Positions 1,733 to 26,022 of a stretch of 64,000 bases of DNA are shown here, in pieces. Numbering within the stretch: the stretch's first letter is position 1; each line of letters starts with the position of its first letter. Position numbers and translations under genes: made by a program. The DNA lies in contig CALVBW010000023.1 in assembly GCA_944325945.1 (NCBI GenBank), forward strand, positions 21,825-85,824, read 5' to 3'. The stretch is from Candidatus Gastranaerophilales bacterium (GTDB lineage Bacteria; Cyanobacteriota; Vampirovibrionia; Gastranaerophilales; Gastranaerophilaceae). The notes beneath the pieces were generated by a model that had not been told where the DNA came from, searched no databases, and was given only the letters and a program-made list of their open reading frames with translations.

Positions 1733-2809
1733 TTAATCACCTATGCAAACCGCCTGTAGATTGTTATTGTTACGGTAGGTGTAGCTCCAGCTCGTACTGG
1801 TAGAGGAAAAGCCGCGGCGGCCGTACCCGATGCCGCTACCATACTCCTCACCGGACCAAACGAGGAAAGATGAGCCTTGAGAGGCTGTGAAGCCAAGCTC
1901 TGTTACTTTGTCATAGTCAAGTGTTAAATTGCGTGCATCGCCTTTGGCGCCTATGCCTGATGTGTTGTATACATAGTTTGCTATATCTGCTAATTGTGTA
2001 GCTGTTGGCATTTTACTTATACCTCCGCAGGCTTTTATAGCACCTGCCCAGTAATCACTTTTATGATAGCATTCTTTTATTCCAAGGTCACCTTTTAATT
2101 GTTCACATTCCGCCTCTGTAATAGGCTCAGGGAAAAACGGAGCAGTAAAACAAGTATTTCCCATTTTGAACGCACAGTTTCTTCCGTCAAGCGATTTAAC
2201 ATTAATAGAGCGTAAATCTTTTTGCTGAGTATTAGGAGTTTTAAATCCTGTGGTATCGTAAAGAATAGCTAAACAGGAAGTACCTGTAAATTGATTAGTA
2301 AAGGGCTGCTCTTTACACTCGGGATTATATGCAATAATCCCTGTAATACCGTTAGCGAATTGTACGCCGATGAGTTCGGTATCCCAATCATCCTGCCCGA
2401 AGTTGGAGGCATTTTTAATTTCTGTCATGTCGACTTCTTCTCCTTCAGCACCCCAGTAGACTTTGTCTTCAAAACAGGACATAATATCATTATTAGAACA
2501 AACTTTTGTAATTTTAAAGTATTTGCCTAAAGCACCGACAAAGTCAGCAGTAGATCTGTAGCCTGCCAGAACCTGCTGTGTATTCATTTGTTTAAGAGCT
2601 TCTTCTAATTTTCTTTCAAAGACAGACGCGGAAGTATTCCAGGTTTTGTTCTGATAATTCGCAATCAAAGTCGGAATAGTCATAGCGGCCACAACGCCTA
2701 TTATGCCGAGGGTGATAAGCACCTCAGCGAGGGTAAACGCGGCTTTTTTAGAAGATACTAAGTTACTAAGGCAGTAAGGCACTAAGAATTTACTGTGAGT
2801 TTCGCTCAC
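1733..2809 (-). CDS. Prepilin-type (type IV pilin-like/pseudopilin) protein, paralog A, with a DUF1566/FISUMP-like C-terminal domain
   Basis: N-terminus (GTG)SETHSKFLVPYCLSNLVSSKKAA-FTLAEVLITLGIIGVVAAMTIPTL is a class III signal (cleavage/methylation motif, Glu at +5, hydrophobic helix). The true start is uncertain; see the upstream ATG/G11 finding. Confidence 0.8.
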   Translation of the reverse strand: MSETHSKFLVPYCLSNLVSSKKAAFTLAEVLITLGIIGVVAAMTIPTLIANYQNKTWNTSASVFERKLEEALKQMNTQQVLAGYRSTADFVGALGKYFKITKVCSNNDIMSCFEDKVYWGAEGEEVDMTEIKNASNFGQDDWDTELIGVQFANGITGIIAYNPECKEQPFTNQFTGTSCLAILYDTTGFKTPNTQQKDLRSINVKSLDGRNCAFKMGNTCFTAPFFPEPITEAECEQLKGDLGIKECYHKSDYWAGAIKACGGISKMPTATQLADIANYVYNTSGIGAKGDARNLTLDYDKVTELGFTASQGSSFLVWSGEEYGSGIGYGRRGFSSTSTSWSYTYRNNNNLQAVCIGD

Positions 2810-2815
2810 ATATTT

Positions 2816-2877
2816 GTCATTCCGAACTAGTTTCGGAATCTCTTTATTATGAGATGCTGAAACTGGTTCAGCATGAC
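2816..2877. repeat. Two palindromic repeat units in opposite orientation (2816-2842 GTCATTCCGAACTAGTTTCGGAATCTC; 2851-2877 GAGATGCTGAAACTGGTTCAGCATGAC)
   Basis: Read directly. They lie inside the stop-free leader of gene A. Confidence 0.8.
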
Positions 2878-2894
2878 CGGAGGTTAAGCTACTG

Positions 2895-2905
2895 CCCCCC
2901 CCCCC
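2895..2905 (-). repeat. Homopolymer tract: C11 on the plus strand, G11 on the coding strand of gene A
   Basis: Counted from the sequence (actgCCCCCCCCCCCtgagt). It lies 12 codons after an SD-ATG (ATG 2940-2942). Confidence 0.9.
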
Positions 2906-2975
2906 TGAGTGAAAAGTAGTCGTGATGCGTATTTGCGCCCATTTTTTAAACCTCCAAATATCCTGTTACTGTTTT

Positions 2976-4188: not shown

Positions 4189-6660
4189 ATGAAAATATAC
4201 TTTAACCCCGCAATTAAATCATACGTAAATAACAGGCAGCAAAATAAACATGAGGATAATAAGAATTTAAAAGAGAGTTATTCATATAATCCTGTTGCGT
4301 ACAGAGACTATAATATATCTTTTGGTGCAAGATTATTCAGGTCTCCTGAAAATTTTTACGAACAGGATTTTAACAAAGAAGGTATGCCGAAAACTTTGCA
4401 CCGGTATATTTACAACCCCGACAATTACAGCTTCAGAAAAACAATACCTCCGGCTCAGGCAATGAAAGAGGTTTTTGGCTCTATTTCAGGCATGCAGACA
4501 CTGGAAGAAGTGAAAGCGGCATTCCCTGACGAACCGTTATTTGCTGATTTGCATTCAAAATCATCAAGAAAAGCAAGAACAGGTCTGCTGGGCGAATTGG
4601 CACTCGTTCGTGAGGATGAGTTCTATGCCGGTAAATCTTTGTTTAAAAACGGTAAAGATGATCTTGGAATGTATATTTTGAAAAAGATATATGTTGAAGG
4701 TAAAACTTTAAAAGAAATAAATAAAGATTTCCAAAGGGATAAAAGTGTTGTTTACAATGGTTTGAGCGATATTCAATATACGGATGTTAAAGCGTTCGGT
4801 ATTAAGTTCCCTAAACGGGATTTTTGGAAGTCTTTTATTGCAACGCGTGAAGATTTTCCGTATGTTTATATCCCCAGAACAACAGAAGTAAGTAAATCTT
4901 CTGCACCGTCACATATTCATCGTGAAAATCCGGTAAAATATACTCCTAAAAAACGCTTTGAAGATTTGAAAGATTGGGAAATCGACAAAATTACCGATGC
5001 AATGCTGGAAGGTATGGGGGATAGAAAAGAAACTGAAAGACTTTTGAAAAAACGTAATTTACAAGATACTGAATCCCTGAATTTCGTTGCTAAATATATG
5101 GGTGAAATAAATTCTGTTGTGTTGGAAAAATTACATGTCTCAGAAGAAATGAAAGAATTTTTTGACAACTATGACAATTTAACTAAAACTCAGAAACAGA
5201 AATTCAAAGATTATTGGAAATCTCCTGAAACAAGAGAATTACGTTCACTTGTAATGTCGTCTACAATCAGATTTTTCTTTGATGTTTATGGTGTTGACGG
5301 CAACAATGAAGAATTTCAGGAGCTTTTGGAATATGCCCGCGGTATAAAAGCCAAAAGAGAAGCTCAGGAGCTTGAACATAATCGTATTCAAGCTGAGTAT
5401 GATGAAATGTTTAAAGAGCTTGATATGGCAGAACAAAATGAATTACCTAAAGAAGATATCAAAGAAGCACCGCAAATGACTTTTGATCAGCATCTTGAAA
5501 AAGAAGCAAAAAAATACAACGGTAAAGTATATACTTTTGTTGTTAAAGATGGTGTAAAAATTTCTATTGTGGCTAATCTTGCAGAATTAATGGCTCAAAA
5601 ATTCGCAAGTGAATATAGATTTTTACCAAATGCTTATGCAAAACAGTATACCAAGTTTGTATTAAATCATCATAAGGTTAATGACGATTATATGCTGTCT
5701 TTGTTATATAAAGTTGATAATTTGTTAGATCATGGCGATCTTTTATCCAATAAGCAATTATCTGATGATCCCGAAGAAAATAAAAAGTTAAATATGAATT
5801 ATGCCGAACAGATAAAAGAACAGCTTATGCCTGAAGAAAAAGTTAATTCTATAACTCAAGAAGTTTACAAAGATTTTGTGAAAAATAATAAAAAAACTTA
5901 TGATATAGCTACACAAACAATGATGGAGCTTGTTGTAAGGCTTATGAATTCTGAAGATAAAAGTGGTGATATTTCAGACGATATACAAAAGTTGTTGTCA
6001 GGCGATGAAGATGTAAATATAAAAATATCAGATATCTTAGATGTTGATTTTGTGGATATGTTACATAAAAACACATTAAGGAAAAGTAAACTTTTGAGAA
6101 GACATGATATCGCGTTTTTAAACCCTGAACAAATTTCTACAACGCTAAAGATGGCAGGATTTACTGATTTGTCTGTTGAAGATAAAAAATTTGTTGAAGA
6201 TACAATGGCAAAATATCAACAACCTTTGAATAATAAAGAGATAAGAAAGATAACCTACAAAATTATAGATAACCTGGTTAATTATCACACTGAAAAATCT
6301 GTTATACTGCAAGAACCTTATACGTTTTTATATAAAGCCGTTCAAAAAAATATAGAAAAGTATCCTGAAATCAAATCTTACCTTGTACAAACTTTGCAGA
6401 GATCATATGTACTGCCCCAAAATACTACTTTGCGGTATTTTATAGATGATAAAGCTGATAAGAATTTGTTAGAGGCTAAAACTGAAAGATTTATTATCGA
6501 ATTGATAACTAATGAGCCCGAAGTGGTTAGTCTGATGGCGTCAATAGATATGGAAAATATGGAAAAATATATTAAACCTTTTGATTACAATCTTTTTAGA
6601 AAAATGTGCGAATACAGACTTGTTGCATCACAATATTTTGCAAAAGCATCTAAAAAATAG
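4189..6660 (+). CDS. Large K/E-rich hypothetical protein (823 aa) with an N/Q-rich N-terminus and ISFGA motif
   Basis: ORF track; SD-like AAAGGAAG upstream of the ATG. No recognisable domain and no signal peptide. Confidence 0.7.
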   Translation: MKIYFNPAIKSYVNNRQQNKHEDNKNLKESYSYNPVAYRDYNISFGARLFRSPENFYEQDFNKEGMPKTLHRYIYNPDNYSFRKTIPPAQAMKEVFGSISGMQTLEEVKAAFPDEPLFADLHSKSSRKARTGLLGELALVREDEFYAGKSLFKNGKDDLGMYILKKIYVEGKTLKEINKDFQRDKSVVYNGLSDIQYTDVKAFGIKFPKRDFWKSFIATREDFPYVYIPRTTEVSKSSAPSHIHRENPVKYTPKKRFEDLKDWEIDKITDAMLEGMGDRKETERLLKKRNLQDTESLNFVAKYMGEINSVVLEKLHVSEEMKEFFDNYDNLTKTQKQKFKDYWKSPETRELRSLVMSSTIRFFFDVYGVDGNNEEFQELLEYARGIKAKREAQELEHNRIQAEYDEMFKELDMAEQNELPKEDIKEAPQMTFDQHLEKEAKKYNGKVYTFVVKDGVKISIVANLAELMAQKFASEYRFLPNAYAKQYTKFVLNHHKVNDDYMLSLLYKVDNLLDHGDLLSNKQLSDDPEENKKLNMNYAEQIKEQLMPEEKVNSITQEVYKDFVKNNKKTYDIATQTMMELVVRLMNSEDKSGDISDDIQKLLSGDEDVNIKISDILDVDFVDMLHKNTLRKSKLLRRHDIAFLNPEQISTTLKMAGFTDLSVEDKKFVEDTMAKYQQPLNNKEIRKITYKIIDNLVNYHTEKSVILQEPYTFLYKAVQKNIEKYPEIKSYLVQTLQRSYVLPQNTTLRYFIDDKADKNLLEAKTERFIIELITNEPEVVSLMASIDMENMEKYIKPFDYNLFRKMCEYRLVASQYFAKASKK

Positions 6661-6666
6661 CAAAAA

Positions 6667-6696
6667 ATAACCTTCCGAAAGGAAGGTTATTTTTTT
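6667..6696. terminator. Bidirectional rho-independent terminator between convergent genes
   Basis: ATAACCTTCC-gaaa-GGAAGGTTAT followed by T6 and preceded by an A-run. Confidence 0.75.
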
Positions 6697-8936: not shown

Positions 8937-8967
8937 AAAAAAAAAGACCAACAAATGGTCTTTTTTG
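8937..8967 (-). terminator. Rho-independent terminator downstream of pilin-like gene B
   Basis: AGACCA-acaaa-TGGTCT flanked by an A-run and a T-run. Confidence 0.6.
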
Positions 8968-9024: not shown

Positions 9025-9825
9025 TTATAGCCACGGATAGTCATCCGGTATTTTCCAGCCGCTTTTTTTGATAACACTGCCGCAACCTCTGTATAAAGTA
9101 GTATTTGAATTATTTTCATTATAGCAGTCAGATTTATTGTTGTTTAATGTGGCGGACTCATTATAGAATAAAAATTTTCCGTCTTTCGCGCTTAAAATCA
9201 TCCAAAAAATATCTTTACCGAAACAATTAGGGGACGAAAAACCATTTAAATCAACATCAAAAGATATATTAGTATAATCAAAATACTTACATGACCCATC
9301 ATCATTATATTCCTTACAAGAGGAATTATCTAACAACATACGGATTATTACATTATTAGAAAGCAAAAAAATTCTGCCTTCAAGATTTCGAGATTCAACC
9401 GCGCCATTTGGGTAGGAAGTAGTAATTCCCACCTCCCTGTAAGAAGTATACCCGAAATCTTTTTGGATTTTTAAATTTGGAGCAAGGTAATTATCAAAAA
9501 CATTATTAACGAAATCCTCTTTGTTAAAACTTGTATCATCAGTGTGAATTCCGCTTGCGGCTTTAGACATCCAGGTAGAAGGGTCGCCATGTTCAACCTG
9601 AGCCATTTGTAACGCCTGCGATAAAATTGAATATGTTTGTTTTAGTTTAACTTCAAACTGCTTTTTCTGATAATTGCTAACCAACGTCGGGATCGTCATA
9701 GCAGCCACAACTCCGATTATGCCGAGGGTTATCAAGACTTCAGCGAGGGTGAAGGCGGGTTTTTTAGAAGATACTAAGTTACTAAGGCAGTAAGGCACTA
9801 AGAATTTACTGTGAACTTCGCTCAC
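9025..9825 (-). CDS. Prepilin-type protein, paralog B
   Basis: Conserved (GTG)SEVHSKFLVPYCLSNLVSSKKPA-FTLAEVLITLGIIGVVAAMTIPTL; pilin-like DVDLNGFSSPNCFGKDIFWM; C-terminal GWKIPDDYPWL. The ORF track extends to TTG 9870. AGGA lies 7 nt before GTG 9823-9825. With a C10 tract, the ATG at 9923 would be in frame. Confidence 0.8.
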   Translation of the reverse strand: MSEVHSKFLVPYCLSNLVSSKKPAFTLAEVLITLGIIGVVAAMTIPTLVSNYQKKQFEVKLKQTYSILSQALQMAQVEHGDPSTWMSKAASGIHTDDTSFNKEDFVNNVFDNYLAPNLKIQKDFGYTSYREVGITTSYPNGAVESRNLEGRIFLLSNNVIIRMLLDNSSCKEYNDDGSCKYFDYTNISFDVDLNGFSSPNCFGKDIFWMILSAKDGKFLFYNESATLNNNKSDCYNENNSNTTLYRGCGSVIKKSGWKIPDDYPWL

Positions 9826-9874
9826 TAATTTTCCTATACCTGAGACGCTAAAACAGTTACCCCAAGCCAATTTC

Positions 9875-9883
9875 GGGGGGGGG
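9875..9883 (-). repeat. Homopolymer tract: G9 on plus, C9 on the coding strand of gene B
   Basis: Counted from the sequence (tttcGGGGGGGGGcgact). It lies 13 codons after the SD-ATG at 9921-9923. Confidence 0.9.
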
Positions 9884-9945
9884 CGACTATCTGAACCGCT
9901 TTTTGCACAACCTTTTTCAACATATCAACTCTCCTTTTTTCTTTT

Positions 9946-9974
9946 ATTAAATATTATTTTGCATATTTTGTCAA
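9946..9974 (-). promoter_or_regulatory. Putative sigma70-type promoter of pilin locus B (TTGACA-17 nt-TTTAAT)
   Basis: Minus strand has TTGACA (9969-9974), a 17-nt spacer and TTTAAT (9946-9951), then AAGGAGAG and ATG. Confidence 0.5.
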
Positions 9975-9980
9975 GGCATT

Positions 9981-10048: not shown

Positions 10049-10336
10049 TTAAAAATGCATATCAAAGCTTGGCGGCATACCGTTCATTTTTTCGTCTTCC
10101 ATACGCATTGCAGAGCCAATTGTAAAGCTTTGTGCGCTTATTCTGTTTATCTGATAATTCAAATCTCCGTTAAATACCTGTTCGTTTTCTTCTAAAAATT
10201 TGAAAAGCGGATCAGCAGGACCTTTTGCAAGGTTGCCTAAAGTTTCGCCTGCCTGCTTCAGTGTCCTTTCCGGTACTTTTACGTTCAGTCCGAAAGGTTT
10301 ATATGGTCTGTTAAATGAAAATCCTGCTTCTGCCAT
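10049..10336 (-). CDS. Hypothetical protein (95 aa)
   Basis: ORF track, with its own terminator. No family recognised. Confidence 0.45.
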   Translation of the reverse strand: MAEAGFSFNRPYKPFGLNVKVPERTLKQAGETLGNLAKGPADPLFKFLEENEQVFNGDLNYQINRISAQSFTIGSAMRMEDEKMNGMPPSFDMHF

Positions 10337-10439: not shown

Positions 10440-11879
10440 TTATGATATTACGGTGAATTTTTCTTTAAGCTTTTCAACAAGCGGATTTTCTATTTTTTTT
10501 ATTTTTGATTTGTCAAGAATAATATGACCTTCGCGTTCAATTGTTTGAACCTGAGAGAGCGCATCTTCGTAACGCATTTTGCCTCTGGCGACCAGTTTTG
10601 CAAGATTATTAACATATTTTTGTTGATTTTTCAGCGGATAATTTTCTAATACCTGCCACAGAGGTTTGCTTTGTCTGTCGGAATTTATTTGTTTTTTCGC
10701 TAAAGCTACATTTGAAAGTGTATTTGGTCCGCCTTCGGATTTAGCTTTTAAATGTTCAACCGAGACCATTCCGGGGTTAAATAATCTGTCACCTATTATA
10801 TCAGGGTCTGCATCACGGAATTTCAAAATTAAAGCGTCTGCACTTCTCGATGATGTCGGCAAATTCATTGCTATATCAAGCATTTTTTGCTTTAATGCTT
10901 TGTCCGGCATATTTTCCAGCAGTTTGTCCAGATCATATACAAATGCTTTGTTACTGAATGCCACGTGTACCGGTATGCCTTCAATCATACCGATATTTTC
11001 GGCGCAAAGTTTTTCAAGTTTTTTGTAACCTTTCATCTCTGCTGTTTTTCTCATTTTTTCGATAATTGCAATACGCACGGCATCTTTATCTGTTTCGTAT
11101 TTCTGGTAATTTTTTTCGTAAAATACGGATTTTCTGCCCGGAGCTTTAACATTTTTAAAATCAAACACCTGTTTCACAAATGTTGATGATAAGGGTCTGT
11201 TGCCGTGGTTTAAGTTTTCATTTTGCAGTAGATCAAGAAGTTTTTGCATACGGTTTTTGAGGTTGCCGTCGGACATTTTTTCCGTAATTTTTGTTATTTT
11301 ATATGAGAATTCTTTTAAACTGAATTCTTGTTTGATAGGCTGGTCATACAATTTTTTATCAATAGTTTCCATAAATTTAAAGAACGGCTGTATATATTCT
11401 TGAGGAAGTTCAGCGCCGAGAGTTTTTATGGCGTCAAATTTAGGTTTTTGGATTCGTCTGAAATTGGAGCGTGTTGTTTTGTACCAGTTTTTAAAAAGCT
11501 GCGGAAGATCAATATCAGGAGTTTCTTTTGCCGCCTCTTCTATCCTTTCAAAAACTTCTTTTTCAATAGGTTCAAGATATTTGTCTTTGTACGGCTTGAG
11601 TTTCATTACAACGTCGCTTATCGGTCCTTTGAAAAATCCGCGTTTTTTCATTTTTGTTAATTGGTCGCTGGATATCATTTTGTCTCCGGAATACAGGCAT
11701 GTCATATATTTGCCCAGTTTTTTAAATTCTTTTATTGACATTGGAGAACTGCCGGTGAAATTTACTGTGTCATATAATGGTTGTGTTTTGACAGATAAAT
11801 TGTTACGGGAATAATTATACTGATTATTCTCTGTTTTTCTTGCGTGTATGTTAAATAAATTTACCGGTAAAATTTTCAT
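10440..11879 (-). CDS. Hypothetical protein with an N/Q-rich N-terminus (VNFTG motif) and a C-terminal HNH nuclease motif
   Basis: 479 aa. Residues 371-403, MVSVEHLKAKSEGGPNTLSNVALAKKQINSDRQ, fit the H-N-N(H) beta-beta-alpha-Me pattern. Confidence 0.7.
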   Translation of the reverse strand: MKILPVNLFNIHARKTENNQYNYSRNNLSVKTQPLYDTVNFTGSSPMSIKEFKKLGKYMTCLYSGDKMISSDQLTKMKKRGFFKGPISDVVMKLKPYKDKYLEPIEKEVFERIEEAAKETPDIDLPQLFKNWYKTTRSNFRRIQKPKFDAIKTLGAELPQEYIQPFFKFMETIDKKLYDQPIKQEFSLKEFSYKITKITEKMSDGNLKNRMQKLLDLLQNENLNHGNRPLSSTFVKQVFDFKNVKAPGRKSVFYEKNYQKYETDKDAVRIAIIEKMRKTAEMKGYKKLEKLCAENIGMIEGIPVHVAFSNKAFVYDLDKLLENMPDKALKQKMLDIAMNLPTSSRSADALILKFRDADPDIIGDRLFNPGMVSVEHLKAKSEGGPNTLSNVALAKKQINSDRQSKPLWQVLENYPLKNQQKYVNNLAKLVARGKMRYEDALSQVQTIEREGHIILDKSKIKKIENPLVEKLKEKFTVIS

Positions 11880-11940
11880 ATTGTTTTAAAACTCCTGATT
11901 AAAAAAAATTGCCAGTCCGTATTTTACGTAACTGACAGTA

Positions 11941-15085: not shown

Positions 15086-15135
15086 AAGTTCATTACAGGA
15101 GAAAAAATATGGGAAATAAAGAGTTTAAAAATCTC

Positions 15136-15144
15136 GGGGGGGGG
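15136..15144 (+). repeat. Homopolymer tract G9 on the coding strand of gene C
   Basis: Counted from the sequence (atctcGGGGGGGGGcgact). It lies 9 codons after ATG 15109-15111. Confidence 0.9.
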
Positions 15145-15196
15145 CGACTCCTCTAAGTAGGCAGGGCAAGGGTTCTGGCGATATACGTTGGAAAAA

Positions 15197-15236
15197 GATA
15201 CTAAGATACTATGGCACTAAGATAGTAAGAGGTAAC
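15197..15236. repeat. Tandem 8-bp array GATACTAA GATACTAT GGCACTAA GATAGTAA GAGGTAAC, an inverted counterpart of the pilin-leader array at 15566-15600
   Basis: Read directly. The reverse complement contains TCTTAGTGCC and CTTAGTATCTT, matching the conserved leader. Confidence 0.7.
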
Positions 15237-15536
15237 AGTCGGATTAGTAAATCCGACTTACAATATGTCATCCTGAACTGCCTGAGGCAGGACAACACAC
15301 TGAACATTGGTGGGACTTACCATGTCATCCTGAACTTGTTTCAGGATCTCAAAAGATGCACCCCCGCCCCCAGAATTTCAAACACTCGCAAGCTTATGTT
15401 GAAATTCAACCCCCGCCCTCAAGGGGTGAGGGTAAGCCCCTTGAGCGAAGCTCACAGAAAACACACACCTCACTTTACTCACCTCACTCACTCTAGTCAC
15501 GTTAAACAAGAGACCCTGAAACGAGTTCTGGGTGAC
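15237..15536. repeat. Mosaic of short palindromic repeats inside the stop-free leader of gene C
   Basis: AGTCGGATT-agta-AATCCGACT (15237-15258), GTCATCCTGAACTGCCTGAGGCAGGAC (15267-15293), GTCATCCTGAACTTGTTTCAGGATCTC (15324-15350), CCCTCA-agggg-TGAGGG (15416-15432), GAGACCCTGAAACGAGTTCTGGGTGAC (15510-15536). Confidence 0.8.
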
Positions 15537-15542
15537 AAAGAT

Positions 15543-16310
15543 GTGTGCGAAGCTCACAGTAAATTCTTAGTGCCTTACTGCCTTAGTAACTTAGTATCTT
15601 CTAAAAAGACCGCGTTTACCCTTGCGGAGGTTTTAATAACCCTCGGCATAATCGGAATTGTAGCAGCAATGACAATTCCGACGCTTATATCAAATTATCA
15701 GAAAAAAATTACTGTTTCAAAATTGCAAAAAGCACATTCAACACTTAGTAATATGACTAAGCTTTTGTATGCTGACGGTGTATACAATGCTTTTTCGGGA
15801 ACTGTATCTTCTGAGAGAACCGAACAATTTTTTAATTCATATGTTTTACCGTATTTTAAATCTCCCGTTGTATACAAGGACCGTGTTTGTCCGTATACGG
15901 GCACCACAGAGGACTGTTTTCCTTTTAAATATCCTAATAATGATGTCGTAAATTCTAATGTTAAGACTATTTGGAATTACGGACGTATATATTTTACAAC
16001 ATCTGATAAGACTTCTTATTTTATAAATATAATGAAGTATATTGACCCGGACAACCCCGAGGACGGTCGTGAGTATAGAACTTCTCCCGAAGTTTGGGTT
16101 GATTTGAACGGAGCAGACGGACCAAATACTATGGGAAAAGATATTTTTTATTTCAAAACGGATTTTTCTAAAGGTCTTGTTATGAGTTACTGTGCCTCCA
16201 ACAGTTATGAGTATATAAACAGGGACTGTTCCAAAGATGGATATGGCTTTTGCTGCGCGGCAAAAATAATGCTCGACGGCTGGAAAATAAAAGACGATTA
16301 CCCGTGGTAA
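15543..16310 (+). CDS. Prepilin-type protein, paralog C
   Basis: (GTG)CEAHSKFLVPYCLSNLVSSKKTA-FTLAEVLITLGIIGIVAAMTIPTL; WVDLNGADGPNTMGKDIFYF; C-terminal GWKIKDDYPW. The ORF track opens at TTG 15336, and the frame is open back to 15144. Confidence 0.8.
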   Translation: MCEAHSKFLVPYCLSNLVSSKKTAFTLAEVLITLGIIGIVAAMTIPTLISNYQKKITVSKLQKAHSTLSNMTKLLYADGVYNAFSGTVSSERTEQFFNSYVLPYFKSPVVYKDRVCPYTGTTEDCFPFKYPNNDVVNSNVKTIWNYGRIYFTTSDKTSYFINIMKYIDPDNPEDGREYRTSPEVWVDLNGADGPNTMGKDIFYFKTDFSKGLVMSYCASNSYEYINRDCSKDGYGFCCAAKIMLDGWKIKDDYPW

Positions 16311-19071: not shown

Positions 19072-19137
19072 GTCACCCTGAACTTGTTTCAGGGTCTCCT
19101 TATTGATTTTTAGATTCTGAAACGAGTTCAGAATAAC
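19072..19137. repeat. Two palindromic repeat units (19072-19098 GTCACCCTGAACTTGTTTCAGGGTCTC; 19112-19137 AGATTCTGAAACGAGTTCAGAATAAC)
   Basis: Read directly. The second unit overlaps the last codons of the substrate-binding protein gene. Confidence 0.8.
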
Positions 19138-21198: not shown

Positions 21199-21972
21199 TT
21201 AATTTTTATATTCCTCATCAAGTTCATAAGGTTCGTAATGAAGTTTTCCGTCTTTCATAAATGTATAACTTGTATTATATAGGGAAGTTGAATCAGGATA
21301 AATACCTAAATCAAAAGTGTCTGCTCCCAGCTGGTTGGGACCGGCAGGACCATTAACATCTATAATAATCTGACCGCATCGAGGTGTGGTATAATAAATT
21401 ATTTCTTGTTCACCTGTTTCTTCATTGATTATAGGATTCCCCGCTTCATCTTTTTTTATCGCTGTGTATGTATAGTTACAATTACCTTGATAATTAAACC
21501 TTTGTACCATTATTCTCATGCCATTTTTTAATACGGCAGTTGGGGCGTAATACATGGTCTTACCATAGGTTACACCATTGTTATATTTTTTTTGCTCAAA
21601 TTTTATAGTCTCAGGCCAACAACTTTTATCGCCTGTATTACAAATTTTGGTTACTGATAAATTTTGAGTTAATAATTCCAATATTTCTAAATGAGATAAG
21701 TTTAAGCTGAATATATCACGATAACTGCTAAAACCATTCTGTGCCATTGTTATTTGTACGGCATTTTGTATTATTGAATACCCCGTTTTTGCCTGATTTA
21801 CAAGCTCTTTTTCTTTATAATTGGCAACAAGAGTTGGTATCGTCATAGCCGCCACAACGCCGATTATGCCGAGGGTTATCAAGACTTCAGCGAGTGTGAA
21901 GGCGGTTTTTTTAGAAGATACTAAGTTACTAAGGCAGTAAGGCACTAAGAATTTACTGTGAGCTTCGCTCAC
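21199..21972 (-). CDS. Prepilin-type protein, paralog D
   Basis: (GTG)SEAHSKFLVPYCLSNLVSSKKTA-FTLAEVLITLGIIGVVAAMTIPTL; IIDVNGPAGPNQLGADTFDL. The ORF track extends to TTG 22017. With a C10 tract, the ATG at 22070 would be in frame. Confidence 0.8.
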   Translation of the reverse strand: MSEAHSKFLVPYCLSNLVSSKKTAFTLAEVLITLGIIGVVAAMTIPTLVANYKEKELVNQAKTGYSIIQNAVQITMAQNGFSSYRDIFSLNLSHLEILELLTQNLSVTKICNTGDKSCWPETIKFEQKKYNNGVTYGKTMYYAPTAVLKNGMRIMVQRFNYQGNCNYTYTAIKKDEAGNPIINEETGEQEIIYYTTPRCGQIIIDVNGPAGPNQLGADTFDLGIYPDSTSLYNTSYTFMKDGKLHYEPYELDEEYKN

Positions 21973-22021
21973 TAATTTTCCTATACCTGAGACGCTAAAA
22001 CAGTTACCCCAAGTCAATTTC

Positions 22022-22030
22022 GGGGGGGGG
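22022..22030 (-). repeat. Homopolymer tract: G9 on plus, C9 on the coding strand of gene D
   Basis: Counted from the sequence (atttcGGGGGGGGGcgact). Confidence 0.9.
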
Positions 22031-22092
22031 CGACTATCTGAACCGCTTTTTGCACAACCTTTTTCAACATATCAATTCTCCTTTTTTCTTTT

Positions 22093-22121
22093 ATTAAATA
22101 TTATTTTGCATATTCTGTCAA
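22093..22121 (-). promoter_or_regulatory. Putative sigma70-type promoter of pilin locus D (TTGACA-17 nt-TTTAAT)
   Basis: Same sequence as locus B. It is divergent from the groES upstream region. Confidence 0.5.
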
Positions 22122-22191
22122 GTTTTTTTGAATAATTAATTTTTCCTTAACTTTTTTAAAAAATTGTGAATTCTGTATTATAAATATATTA

Positions 22192-22218
22192 GAGATTCTG
22201 AAATAAGTTCAGAATGAC
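22192..22218. repeat. Palindromic repeat unit GAGATTCTGAAATAAGTTCAGAATGAC in the groES 5' region
   Basis: Read directly. Same family as 19112-19137. Confidence 0.8.
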
Positions 22219-24285: not shown

Positions 24286-26022
24286 TTAGCCAAATATAGC
24301 ATCAATACCTGTAGCTTCTTTAACTTTTTGCCACCAGGATTTTTGTGTACCATCACTTGCAATTGTCATACTGTAGCAATATTCAAGAAACATTTCTCTT
24401 GACATTTTTAAATCTCTATCAGGATACCATGGATTAATAAGAATAACTTCATCTTCGGTTACACGTTTAATAGTAAATGCGTGTAACCCGCTATCATTTG
24501 GTGTATCTCCAACTTTAAAAGAAGCGGTAGCAATTTTGTCAGATTTATTATCTGTCTCAAAATCTTCTTGTAGCTTATCAAGCATTTTATTAAGAGCGCG
24601 ATTTGTTATTCTTATGTTACCATCTATTTCATCAATAGACTGATAAGAATATGATGTTGCTGTTGATATAGGTAATACTTTATTATCCAGCAATGCTGTT
24701 GATGATAAAATTGGAAGATTTTCATAGTTTGTACTAGAATAATATTCAGATTTTTTGCCGGTTAAAACATATATTGCATCATGTTCCCTTCCTCCCGCAA
24801 GGATATTTTCTTCTTCCTTGCCGGTTACCATGCCGGCAATATGCCAATAATCGTCAACTGACAAATTATTTGCTTCAAGTGTTTGGTTGACTTCCTTTCG
24901 GTATTTTTCAAAAGCTGCTTCCAGTAATATTACATCAGGGTCACCTTTAGAATATTGTGTTCCGGCTTTTGATAAAATATCTTTGACTTCATCTTCTGTA
25001 AAAGAATATTCTCCAGTTATAAATACTTCTAATTTATCCTCTTTCAAAGATTCCGCAGCTGATTTGGCACCCGGAAAATTAAAAGTATACACCTTTTTGT
25101 CGTCTACTATTTGTTCAGTTCTTAAACTTTGTAAATATTCCTGACCGTCTGTAGTATTTCTAATTGCGTTTATTGTTGCCAATAAATAACAATCACCTTG
25201 ACCTTTTTGGAAAGAATTGCCATAATAATTATCTAAACCTAAATCCTTCTTTCCAAGTCTTTTGGAGGGAGGATCGGTTGGTTTTACCGGTGATGGATCT
25301 ACCGGTGTCGGATTGTCCGGGTTTTTAATACCCTTTTCCCAATCTTTTAAATTTTTAGTGCGTTTCATTTGCAGTTGTTCATTATCAACAGCTTTAAAAA
25401 TCACATCACCCTGTTCATTTTTTTCTAAAATAAATGCCATATCCTTAAATCTGGACATATAAGTACCGTCGGCTTCGTTATATGTGAGTTTTGTGAATTT
25501 GTTTTCTCCATAATCGGAAGGCAGCTCCATCATTAAAATTCTTGGCATACTTCCGTCTTCAGGCATAACGGTATTTTTCGGAATTCTGACAGTTCCTCTG
25601 TATATTTTGTTTGTAATTCCTGCTTCTCTTGCATCAATTTCTATATTTTCAAGTTTACCGTTTACAAATCCGAAGTCTTCCGCTTTTGGTGCTGTTTCCT
25701 CACTTTCTTCAATACTTGTATTGCCAAGTTCAATCATGAATTGCAAAAATTTTCGGCTTTCAACATCTTTTAATCCTTTGCTATCAAGATATGCTCTTGC
25801 TTCTTCTTCAGTAATGGTTTTATCTTCAATTGCTTTGGCTAAATCGGATTTTAGTATATCAAGTTCTTCCTGACTGATTTCACCGTCATTAGATGTCTCA
25901 ATTTTAGCCCAAATTGTGTTTAAATCTTCGGAGAGATTTTCTTTTTTCATACCGGCTTTTAATTTATTCCAATCAATATTTCCGATATTACCAATTTGAA
26001 TTTTATTTTCATTATTTGGCAC
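24286..26022 (-). CDS. Calpain-like (papain-fold, C2-like) cysteine protease with an N-terminal EF-hand-like loop
   Basis: QKGQGDCYLLATINAI (Cys), GLHAFTIKRV (His) and LINPWY (Asn) follow the calpain triad spacing. N-terminus has ETSNDGEISQEEL. No signal peptide. Confidence 0.6.
   Translation of the reverse strand: MPNNENKIQIGNIGNIDWNKLKAGMKKENLSEDLNTIWAKIETSNDGEISQEELDILKSDLAKAIEDKTITEEEARAYLDSKGLKDVESRKFLQFMIELGNTSIEESEETAPKAEDFGFVNGKLENIEIDAREAGITNKIYRGTVRIPKNTVMPEDGSMPRILMMELPSDYGENKFTKLTYNEADGTYMSRFKDMAFILEKNEQGDVIFKAVDNEQLQMKRTKNLKDWEKGIKNPDNPTPVDPSPVKPTDPPSKRLGKKDLGLDNYYGNSFQKGQGDCYLLATINAIRNTTDGQEYLQSLRTEQIVDDKKVYTFNFPGAKSAAESLKEDKLEVFITGEYSFTEDEVKDILSKAGTQYSKGDPDVILLEAAFEKYRKEVNQTLEANNLSVDDYWHIAGMVTGKEEENILAGGREHDAIYVLTGKKSEYYSSTNYENLPILSSTALLDNKVLPISTATSYSYQSIDEIDGNIRITNRALNKMLDKLQEDFETDNKSDKIATASFKVGDTPNDSGLHAFTIKRVTEDEVILINPWYPDRDLKMSREMFLEYCYSMTIASDGTQKSWWQKVKEATGIDAIFG

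Follow-up and report, generated by a model that had tools for sequence, protein, structure and literature searches.

A variable poly-C tract as a probable translational phase-variation switch of a type IV pilin-like gene in Gastranaerophilales

Introduction

Phase variation through slippage at homopolymers has been well documented in a small number of cultured pathogens. SSR contingency loci include the opa genes of Neisseria, with CTCTT repeats in the signal sequence, and the poly-G/C genes of Campylobacter and Helicobacter. A different use of repeats within genes is seen in the Rickettsia palindromic elements, where a palindromic repeat is inserted in frame into open reading frames. For pilus-associated genes, the pilC1 and pilC2 genes of Neisseria gonorrhoeae and N. 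meningitidis undergo frameshifts through changes in the length of a poly-G tract, and the resulting ON/OFF switching is reversible and alters piliation (PMC13017665).

In bacteria, the leaders of class III signal peptides are 6–26 aa long, with an invariable Gly at position −1 (PMC4471445). Gastranaerophilales have been reported to encode the type IV pilus genes pilA-D and pilT, with pilD reported in a Gastranaerophilus genome (PMC5877343). Our literature search found no paper that links Gastranaerophilales or the DUF6613 domain with phase variation.

Here we analyze a pilin-like gene, referred to as locus B, and three sister loci in a 64,000-nucleotide stretch of the genome of a Candidatus Gastranaerophilales bacterium; this whole stretch is called the window below. 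The mechanism that we propose is ordinary slipped-strand phase variation. The novelty lies in the lineage, in the type of gene affected and in a cassette with a long leader that recurs at multiple loci.

Results

Four pilin loci share one 5′ layout

The window contains four pilin genes (loci A to D), and the 5′ regions of all four are built in the same way: an ATG preceded by an SD motif (SD-ATG) is followed by 9–13 codons, a G/C homopolymer, an open linker, a 53-nt core and a signal peptide. Locus A (1733–2942, minus strand) has its SD-ATG at 2942–2940 and a tract that reads G11 in the sense direction (2895–2905). Locus C (15109–16310, plus strand) starts with an SD-ATG at 15109–15111 and a G9 tract at 15136–15144, after which a linker of 470 nt stays open in the pilin frame although it holds palindromic repeats. 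Locus D (21199–22070, minus strand) combines a 5′ cassette of the locus B type (ATG 22070–22068, C9 at 22022–22030) with another pilin body. The sense tract of locus B is likewise C9. The Phe codons of the four genes lie at 2737 (−), 9753 (−), 15615 (+) and 21900 (−) for loci A, B, C and D, respectively.

Besides these four tracts, no G/C run of at least six nucleotides occurs in the 64 kb, and four runs of at least nine were observed versus 0.05 expected from shuffled sequences. As assembled, all four ATGs are out of frame with their pilins. Locus A needs one base fewer, and loci B, C and D need one base more, so that G10 would be the in-frame (ON) length at both A and C, and each locus is presently OFF.

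Several other large, conserved open reading frames of the window have no Pfam match, namely those encoding 823 aa (4189–6660, plus strand), 479 aa (10440–11879, minus strand), 578 aa (24286–26022, minus strand) and 95 aa (10049–10336, minus strand). The 95-aa and 479-aa genes are located directly 5′ of locus B in every contig examined.

Elements of locus B

All elements of locus B described below are on the minus strand. A promoter-like element, read directly from the sequence at 9946–9974, consists of TTGACA (9974–9969), a 17-nt spacer and TTTAAT (9951–9946). Downstream of it, an SD motif, AAGGAG (9936–9931), is separated by 7 nt from ATG 9923–9921, which we propose as the main translation start of the prepilin. 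Thirteen codons after this ATG lies the C9 homopolymer (9875–9883; G9 on the plus strand), the proposed switch. A first-pass annotation of this DNA had described the same promoter, SD-ATG, codon count and tract, and a renewed reading of the minus strand gave the same positions for each of them. Its promoter assignment, however, stands only in part: both hexamers and the 17-nt spacer are present, but a consensus promoter scan did not call the element, because the −10 hexamer TTTAAT has T in place of the consensus A at position 2. Given this non-canonical −10 hexamer and the lack of a scan call, we regard the locus B promoter as plausible.

From the ATG to the Phe codon of FTLAE there are 170 nt, and 170 mod 3 = 2, so that one C more, or two fewer, restores the pilin frame. 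Tracts of C10 or C7 are thus in frame (ON), and the assembled C9 is OFF, which agrees with the earlier claim that the ATG falls one base short of the pilin frame. In the C9 state, the ATG opens an out-of-frame ORF of 29 codons (9834–9923; MLKKVVQKAVQIVAPPRNWLGVTVLASQV) that ends at TAG 9836–9834. As also claimed, this stop lies inside an AGGA, 8 nt ahead of an in-frame GTG at 9825–9823. The hypothetical C10 product would begin with MLKKVVQKAVQIVAPPPKLAWGNCFSVSGIGKLVSEVHSKF and continue into the pilin, since the pilin frame of locus B is open from the tract onward.

The linker between the tract and the GTG (9826–9874; KLAWGNCFSVSGIGKL) is open in this frame, and a terminator-like CCCC...GGGG hairpin, CCCCGAAATTGGCTTGGGG, is listed for this region. 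The peptide KLAWGNCFSVSGIGK would belong to the leader of locus B, and ILRYYGTK to that of locus C. The GTG has an AGGA 6 nt in front of it and might serve as a secondary start, in which case the leader would have 24 aa; gene callers choose this GTG in the OFF state, as in P0001 and other forms of 266 aa. The 53-nt core, which encodes HSKFLVPYCLSNLVSSKK, follows at 9761–9813. The predicted cleavage between Ala and Phe falls between positions 9754 and 9753, and the mature pilin extends from the Phe of FTLAEVLITLGIIG through the stop codon at 9027–9025 (9025–9753).

Two other kinds of control element were considered for these 5′ regions and rejected. For an attenuator, the folding of the locus B leader gave z = −1.4, which is not significant, and the CCCC...GGGG hairpin is weak. 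For an invertible element, suggested by TCG-G9-CGACT at locus C and AGTCG-C9-GA at loci B and D, which are reverse complements, only about five flanking bases are common to the loci, and neither inverted repeats nor alternative orientations were seen in 14 contigs carrying locus B. A scan of the window with Rfam gathering thresholds detected a single tRNA, and the pilin 5′ regions gave no match to any known RNA element.

The encoded proteins resemble type IV pilins with long leaders

The N_methyl family PF07963 scored above its gathering threshold in all four window proteins; for pilin B, the score was 22.4 bits versus a cutoff of 21.2. The N-terminal methylation motif of pilin B consists of A followed, after the cleavage site, by FTLAEVLITLGIIGVVAAMTIP, with Phe at +1, Glu at +5 and a hydrophobic stretch of about 21 residues. 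In alignments with pilins and pseudopilins of solved structure (PpdD, GspG, PilE1 and PilA), mature residue 1 of these proteins coincides with this Phe of pilin B. The AlphaFold model of pilin B (pLDDT 83) contains a 53-residue N-terminal helix (residues 27–79) followed by a beta domain. When the model was compared with PDB using Foldseek, the top match was the full-length PAK pilin, a weak match that is below significance (E = 0.069, probability 0.47). Precomputed annotations also assign DUF6613 to these proteins, a domain that our Pfam scan at E ≤ 0.01 did not recover.

In their ON forms, the leaders would be 57 aa long at loci B and D, about 68 aa at locus A and 169 aa at locus C, and would reach about 190 aa at related loci. 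All of these lengths lie far outside the 6–26 aa of class III leaders, and a length within it, 24 aa, results only if the GTG is used. The four window loci and the majority of homologs have Ala at position −1, where some homologs have Gly. A leader of 57–190 aa with Ala at −1 counts against processing as an ordinary class III precursor. A prepilin peptidase would be expected to remove the leader between Ala and Phe.

Tract length varies between metagenome assemblies

The first-pass annotation held that a tract fixed at nine in all strains would speak against a length switch. Each of the four tracts instead differs by one base among metagenome assemblies, these being differences between assemblies of different samples. 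At locus A, G11 is found in the window and three contigs, and G10 (ON) in contig L012. At locus B, the window and 12 contigs have C9, and contig L001 has C10 (ON). At locus C, G9 in the window and five contigs contrasts with G10 (ON) in six (L014–L019), which encode the 400-aa protein P0108. At locus D, C9 occurs in the window and seven contigs and C8 in contig L050; the contigs surveyed for this locus favor OFF forms.

When the hypothetical C10 product of locus B was used as a protein query, a large family was recovered, many members of which begin with a short peptide that is followed by GGG or PPP and then by a long leader. One of them, P0127 (299 aa, encoded by L001), is identical to the predicted ON protein at 295 of 299 positions, including the first 36 residues. 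In the 90% cluster of locus B, it is the only 299-aa form, the ten others being forms of 222–266 aa called from the GTG. Compared with the C9 contigs L012 and L013, L001 differs over 3 kb solely by the one-C indel in the tract. The in-frame C10 allele that had been predicted from the assembled C9 sequence thus exists, in a background that is otherwise identical over this length.

Locus C shows two flanking haplotypes, and G9 and G10 occur on each of them (L004 versus L014–L017, and L002 versus L018 and L019), which indicates recurrent length change. This homoplasy across haplotypes may be taken as indirect support for reversible switching. The P0085 cluster, which is more distant and well sampled, has the ON form (283 aa) on more than 120 contigs.

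The combinations of states differ between samples. Sample BRZ_PS has locus B ON and loci A and D OFF; in SAMEA6814470, locus A is ON and loci B, C and D are OFF; and in BRZ_KN, locus C is ON and loci A and B are OFF. These per-sample states are apparent ones, as the contigs of one sample may derive from different strains.

Homopolymers of A/T served as controls. An A9 run at 8937–8945 is invariant in all 13 contigs, and so are most A/T runs of 7–8 nucleotides. Two intergenic A/T runs, at 6690–6696 and 11901–11908, each come in two lengths among the contigs, T7 or T8 and A7 or A8; the genes on either side are convergent or adjacent.

A divergent allele of locus A occurs in some strains (L001 10664–10710 and L011 16887–16933) and has additional modules, HKPHLTHSTHSKKL, in its leader. 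With its G11 tract, this allele would come into frame at G10. Gene callers place its start at a TTG within the SD motif, which yields a spurious product of 423 aa.

The leader frame is kept open across species

A 26-nt piece of the core is present in five species-level Gastranaerophilales genomes. It occurs in 19 copies upstream of a pilin with a G/C tract, a set that counts the four loci of the window. At 18 of the 19 loci, the pilin frame between the tract and the core is free of stops. Over the 1,938 codons of all loci, the pilin frame has 15 stops, every one in the outlier L040b, compared with 174 and 160 in the other two frames. An ATG with a strong SD-like motif at 6–11 nt spacing is located 18–40 nt before the tract at 18 of the 19 loci. 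By comparison, a GTG at the position equivalent to 9825 is present at only 10 of them, mostly without an SD motif. Four of the loci are ON (with tracts of G10, G9, G8 and G7), twelve need one base more and three need one base fewer.

The outlier locus (L040, 6036–6737) has its 15 pilin-frame stops over 649 nt, and another of its frames has only 2 stops; it may be a decayed switch or may have suffered a secondary indel. Taken together, the open pilin frame and the conservation of the SD-ATG across species support translation of the leader.

A shared cassette, a fixed core and repeat modules

A 5′ cassette of about 285 nt is common to loci B and D, with 97–100% identity (9690–9975 and 21837–22122). 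It has sharp boundaries. The identity begins exactly at the promoter-like element of locus B, with the −35 hexamer, and stops about 60 nt beyond the Phe codon, where the alpha-1N helix ends. Outside the cassette, both the flanks and the bodies of the pilins are unrelated or highly diverged. The earlier description of locus D as a near-identical copy of locus B therefore applies to the cassette and not to the pilins. The sharp edges suggest gene conversion, cassette exchange or transfer.

The 53-nt core is 100% identical in its four copies (9761–9813, 2745–2797, 15555–15607 and 21908–21960). There is no synonymous change in it among the four paralogs, whereas the neighboring codons of the conserved helix differ at many third positions. 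The two non-pilin frames of the core contain 2 and 4 stop codons. In other genomes, orphan copies of the core occur without a pilin (L022, L028, L036 and L039).

The pilin leaders are mosaics assembled from repeat modules, among them a 27-nt palindromic repeat of the form GTCAYNCTGAAC..GTTCAGNRTCTC. Eight copies of this repeat were located in the window, at 1578–1604, 2816–2842, 2851–2877, 15324–15350, 15510–15536, 19072–19098, 19111–19137 and 22192–22218. The copies are sited between genes as well as, with the frame kept, in the leaders encoded at loci A and C. They show compensatory changes in the stem (ATGCTG/CAGCAT, ATCCTG/CAGGAT, ACCCTG/CAGGGT and ATTCTG/CAGAAT). At locus B, the tract plus GAAATTGGCTTGGGG aligns with the palindromic repeat module of loci A and C. 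More precisely, the sequence C9-GAAATTGGCTT-GGGG of loci B and D (9860–9883 and 22007–22030) aligns with the modules ATTCCGAAACTAGTTCGGAAT and ACCCTGAAACGAGTTCTGGGT of A and C, with the C-tract opposite the 5′ stem arm of the repeat. By this alignment, the C-tract of loci B and D may have been born by expansion of a repeat stem arm.

Discussion

We propose that locus B is a contingency locus, at which a translational phase-variation switch controls a type IV pilin-like surface protein, and we assign this reading a probability of roughly 0.8. Ribosomes would initiate at the SD-ATG at 9923 and translate 13 codons before entering the poly-C tract. Slipped-strand mispairing in the course of DNA replication would shift the length of this tract by one base. 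With C10 (or C7), translation would stay in frame through the linker and the 53-nt core and reach the class III signal peptide. The result would be a 299-aa prepilin with a 57-aa cytoplasmic leader, which the prepilin peptidase would cut off between Ala and Phe-Thr-Leu-Ala-Glu. With C9, ribosomes would halt at TAG 9836–9834, and with C8 or C11 at an earlier stop. The three other pilin genes of the window would use the same design independently, and with independent switches at four pilin genes, different cells or populations could display different pilins.

The locus shows three of the features expected of an SSR contingency locus: a mutable repeat in the 5′ part of an ORF, length polymorphism between near-identical genomes, and one length that gives the full-length product. 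Thus, C10 yields the 299-aa P0127 and C9 the 29-aa ORF, and G10 at locus C yields the 400-aa P0108. Slippage during replication, the reversibility and rate of switching, and the processing of the long leader are steps that we infer.

Three other readings of the locus need to be weighed against a tract-length switch. The gene might start at GTG 9825, with the ATG-C9 ORF acting as a regulatory uORF coupled to the pilin and the tract length being incidental. The arrangement at locus B invites this reading: the TAG is embedded in an AGGA that stands 6 nt before the GTG, the resulting 24-aa leader is in the normal range, the GTG is picked by gene callers in 10 of the 11 cluster members, and C9 is the commonest state of the locus. 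A stop that adjoins a conserved, SD-equipped start, at a distance of 8 nt and with AGGA at 6-nt spacing, was nevertheless found at loci B and D only. At loci A and C, coupling is impossible, as the out-of-frame ORF stops 100–440 nt upstream of the GTG. The GTG itself is absent at 9 of the 19 related loci and seldom comes with an SD motif. A 5′ untranslated region, moreover, would not be expected to keep one frame free of stops at 18 of the 19 loci, for as many as 190 codons. In addition, the tract varies and yields exact in-frame alleles. We therefore consider a coupled uORF decidedly improbable as the general explanation. The first-pass annotation had offered it as its alternative, and what survives is a possible secondary, low-level route at loci B and D, where reinitiation at GTG 9825 might provide residual expression in the C9 state.

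It is also conceivable that the OFF genotype is the normal one, with slippage of RNA polymerase on C9/G9 or programmed ribosomal frameshifting ensuring constitutive low-level expression. Homopolymers of at least nine nucleotides are known substrates for RNA polymerase slippage, and tracts one base short of the frame predominate at 12 of the 19 loci in GTDB genomes, at three of the four window loci and in 13 of the 14 locus-B contigs. On the other hand, length variants exist at the DNA level, including in-frame ones on identical haplotypes. Some loci, such as the P0085 cluster, are ON in most assemblies, and OFF offsets occur in both directions, +1 and −1 (locus A and L030), which slippage in a single direction does not serve. 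We think this reading unlikely, although somewhat less so than the coupled uORF, and either kind of slippage may still contribute alongside a switch in the DNA. The modal length of nine could equally stem from a mutational bias of poly-G tracts.

The least credible of the readings, to which we give very little weight, is that the tract differences are sequencing or assembly errors in the homopolymers and that the true gene is always in frame or is a fixed pseudogene. G/C homopolymers are error-prone in sequencing and hard for short-read platforms, and several of the contigs have a coverage of only 4–6x according to their names. However, the C10 contig L001 is covered about 18-fold, and the same lengths recur across independent samples, with G10 in six and C9 in thirteen. 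The A9 run and most other homopolymers are invariant; these A/T controls do not fully exclude an artefact. Finally, the open frames, the SD-ATG and the presence of a tract are conserved across five species, independently of any single tract call.

For the tract-length switch that we favor, the excess of tracts one base short is the main point that slipped-strand switching leaves unexplained. With all four window loci OFF and this state being the commonest, expression may depend in part on some factor besides switching at the DNA level.

If the switch is confirmed, the same logic that operates in pathogens would be at work in uncultured gut commensal relatives of cyanobacteria, with many pilin genes per genome. 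It would suggest that the surface filaments of Gastranaerophilales are under continual variation, with host immunity or phages as the probable selective pressure. For annotation, it would mean that such genes are assigned arbitrary internal starts or protein lengths that depend on the assembly, and that apparent homopolymer errors there reflect biology and not noise. Should the long leaders prove to be synthesized and cleaved, class III signal peptides would span a wider range than is now accepted, and the leaders would be a natural example of coding sequence that needs only to stay in frame.

A bolder idea, which we put forward tentatively and judge more doubtful than probable, is that the prepilin leader, cut off in the cytoplasm, serves as a disposable 'frame sensor' within a portable 5′ cassette that is exchanged among dozens of paralogs. 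The cassette envisaged comprises the promoter, the SD-ATG, the G/C tract, the palindromic-repeat linker, the 53-nt core and the alpha-1N helix. Were this true, each pilin would have an independent switch, giving a combinatorial and heritable pilus repertoire, and the functional length of class III leaders would be extended about tenfold. Repeat elements would have been domesticated as coding spacers, the tract of loci B and D apparently deriving from a repeat stem.

Comparison with described systems places the Gastranaerophilales loci close to several of them, and each comparison has its limits. Like the Rickettsia palindromic elements, they carry short palindromic repeats within coding sequence with the frame kept, a likeness at the level of description. 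Unlike those elements, the repeats gather here in a leader that is presumably discarded and whose repeats would therefore be under little structural constraint.

The encoded proteins share with type IV prepilins (PilA/PilE, and the type IVb TcpA and Flp) the N_methyl motif, Phe at +1, Glu at +5, a hydrophobic alpha-1 and a lollipop-like predicted architecture. They differ in having leaders of 57–169 aa in place of 6–26 aa, and Ala instead of Gly at −1 (PMC4471445). The window pilins are also large, with mature proteins of about 240 aa and a C-terminal DUF6613 by precomputed annotation.

As in pilC (PMC13017665), a G/C tract lies in the signal-peptide-coding 5′ end of a pilus-associated gene. 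PilC is not homologous to these pilins; it acts as a tip adhesin or in pilus assembly, and its signal peptide is of the standard and not the class III type. In Gastranaerophilales, the tract falls within an extension of the prepilin leader that would stay in the cytoplasm and be removed, and four or more pilin paralogs each have a switch of their own.

With the SSR contingency loci at large, the four loci have in common a hypermutable repeat in the 5′ coding region, an association with surface-structure genes, numerous paralogs and, for G/C tracts, a modal length near nine. They stand apart from these loci in belonging to an uncultured, non-photosynthetic gut relative of cyanobacteria and to a pilin-like family that combines N_methyl with DUF6613 (the latter by precomputed annotation), and in placing the repeat upstream of a long, mosaic, repeat-derived leader that is kept in frame.
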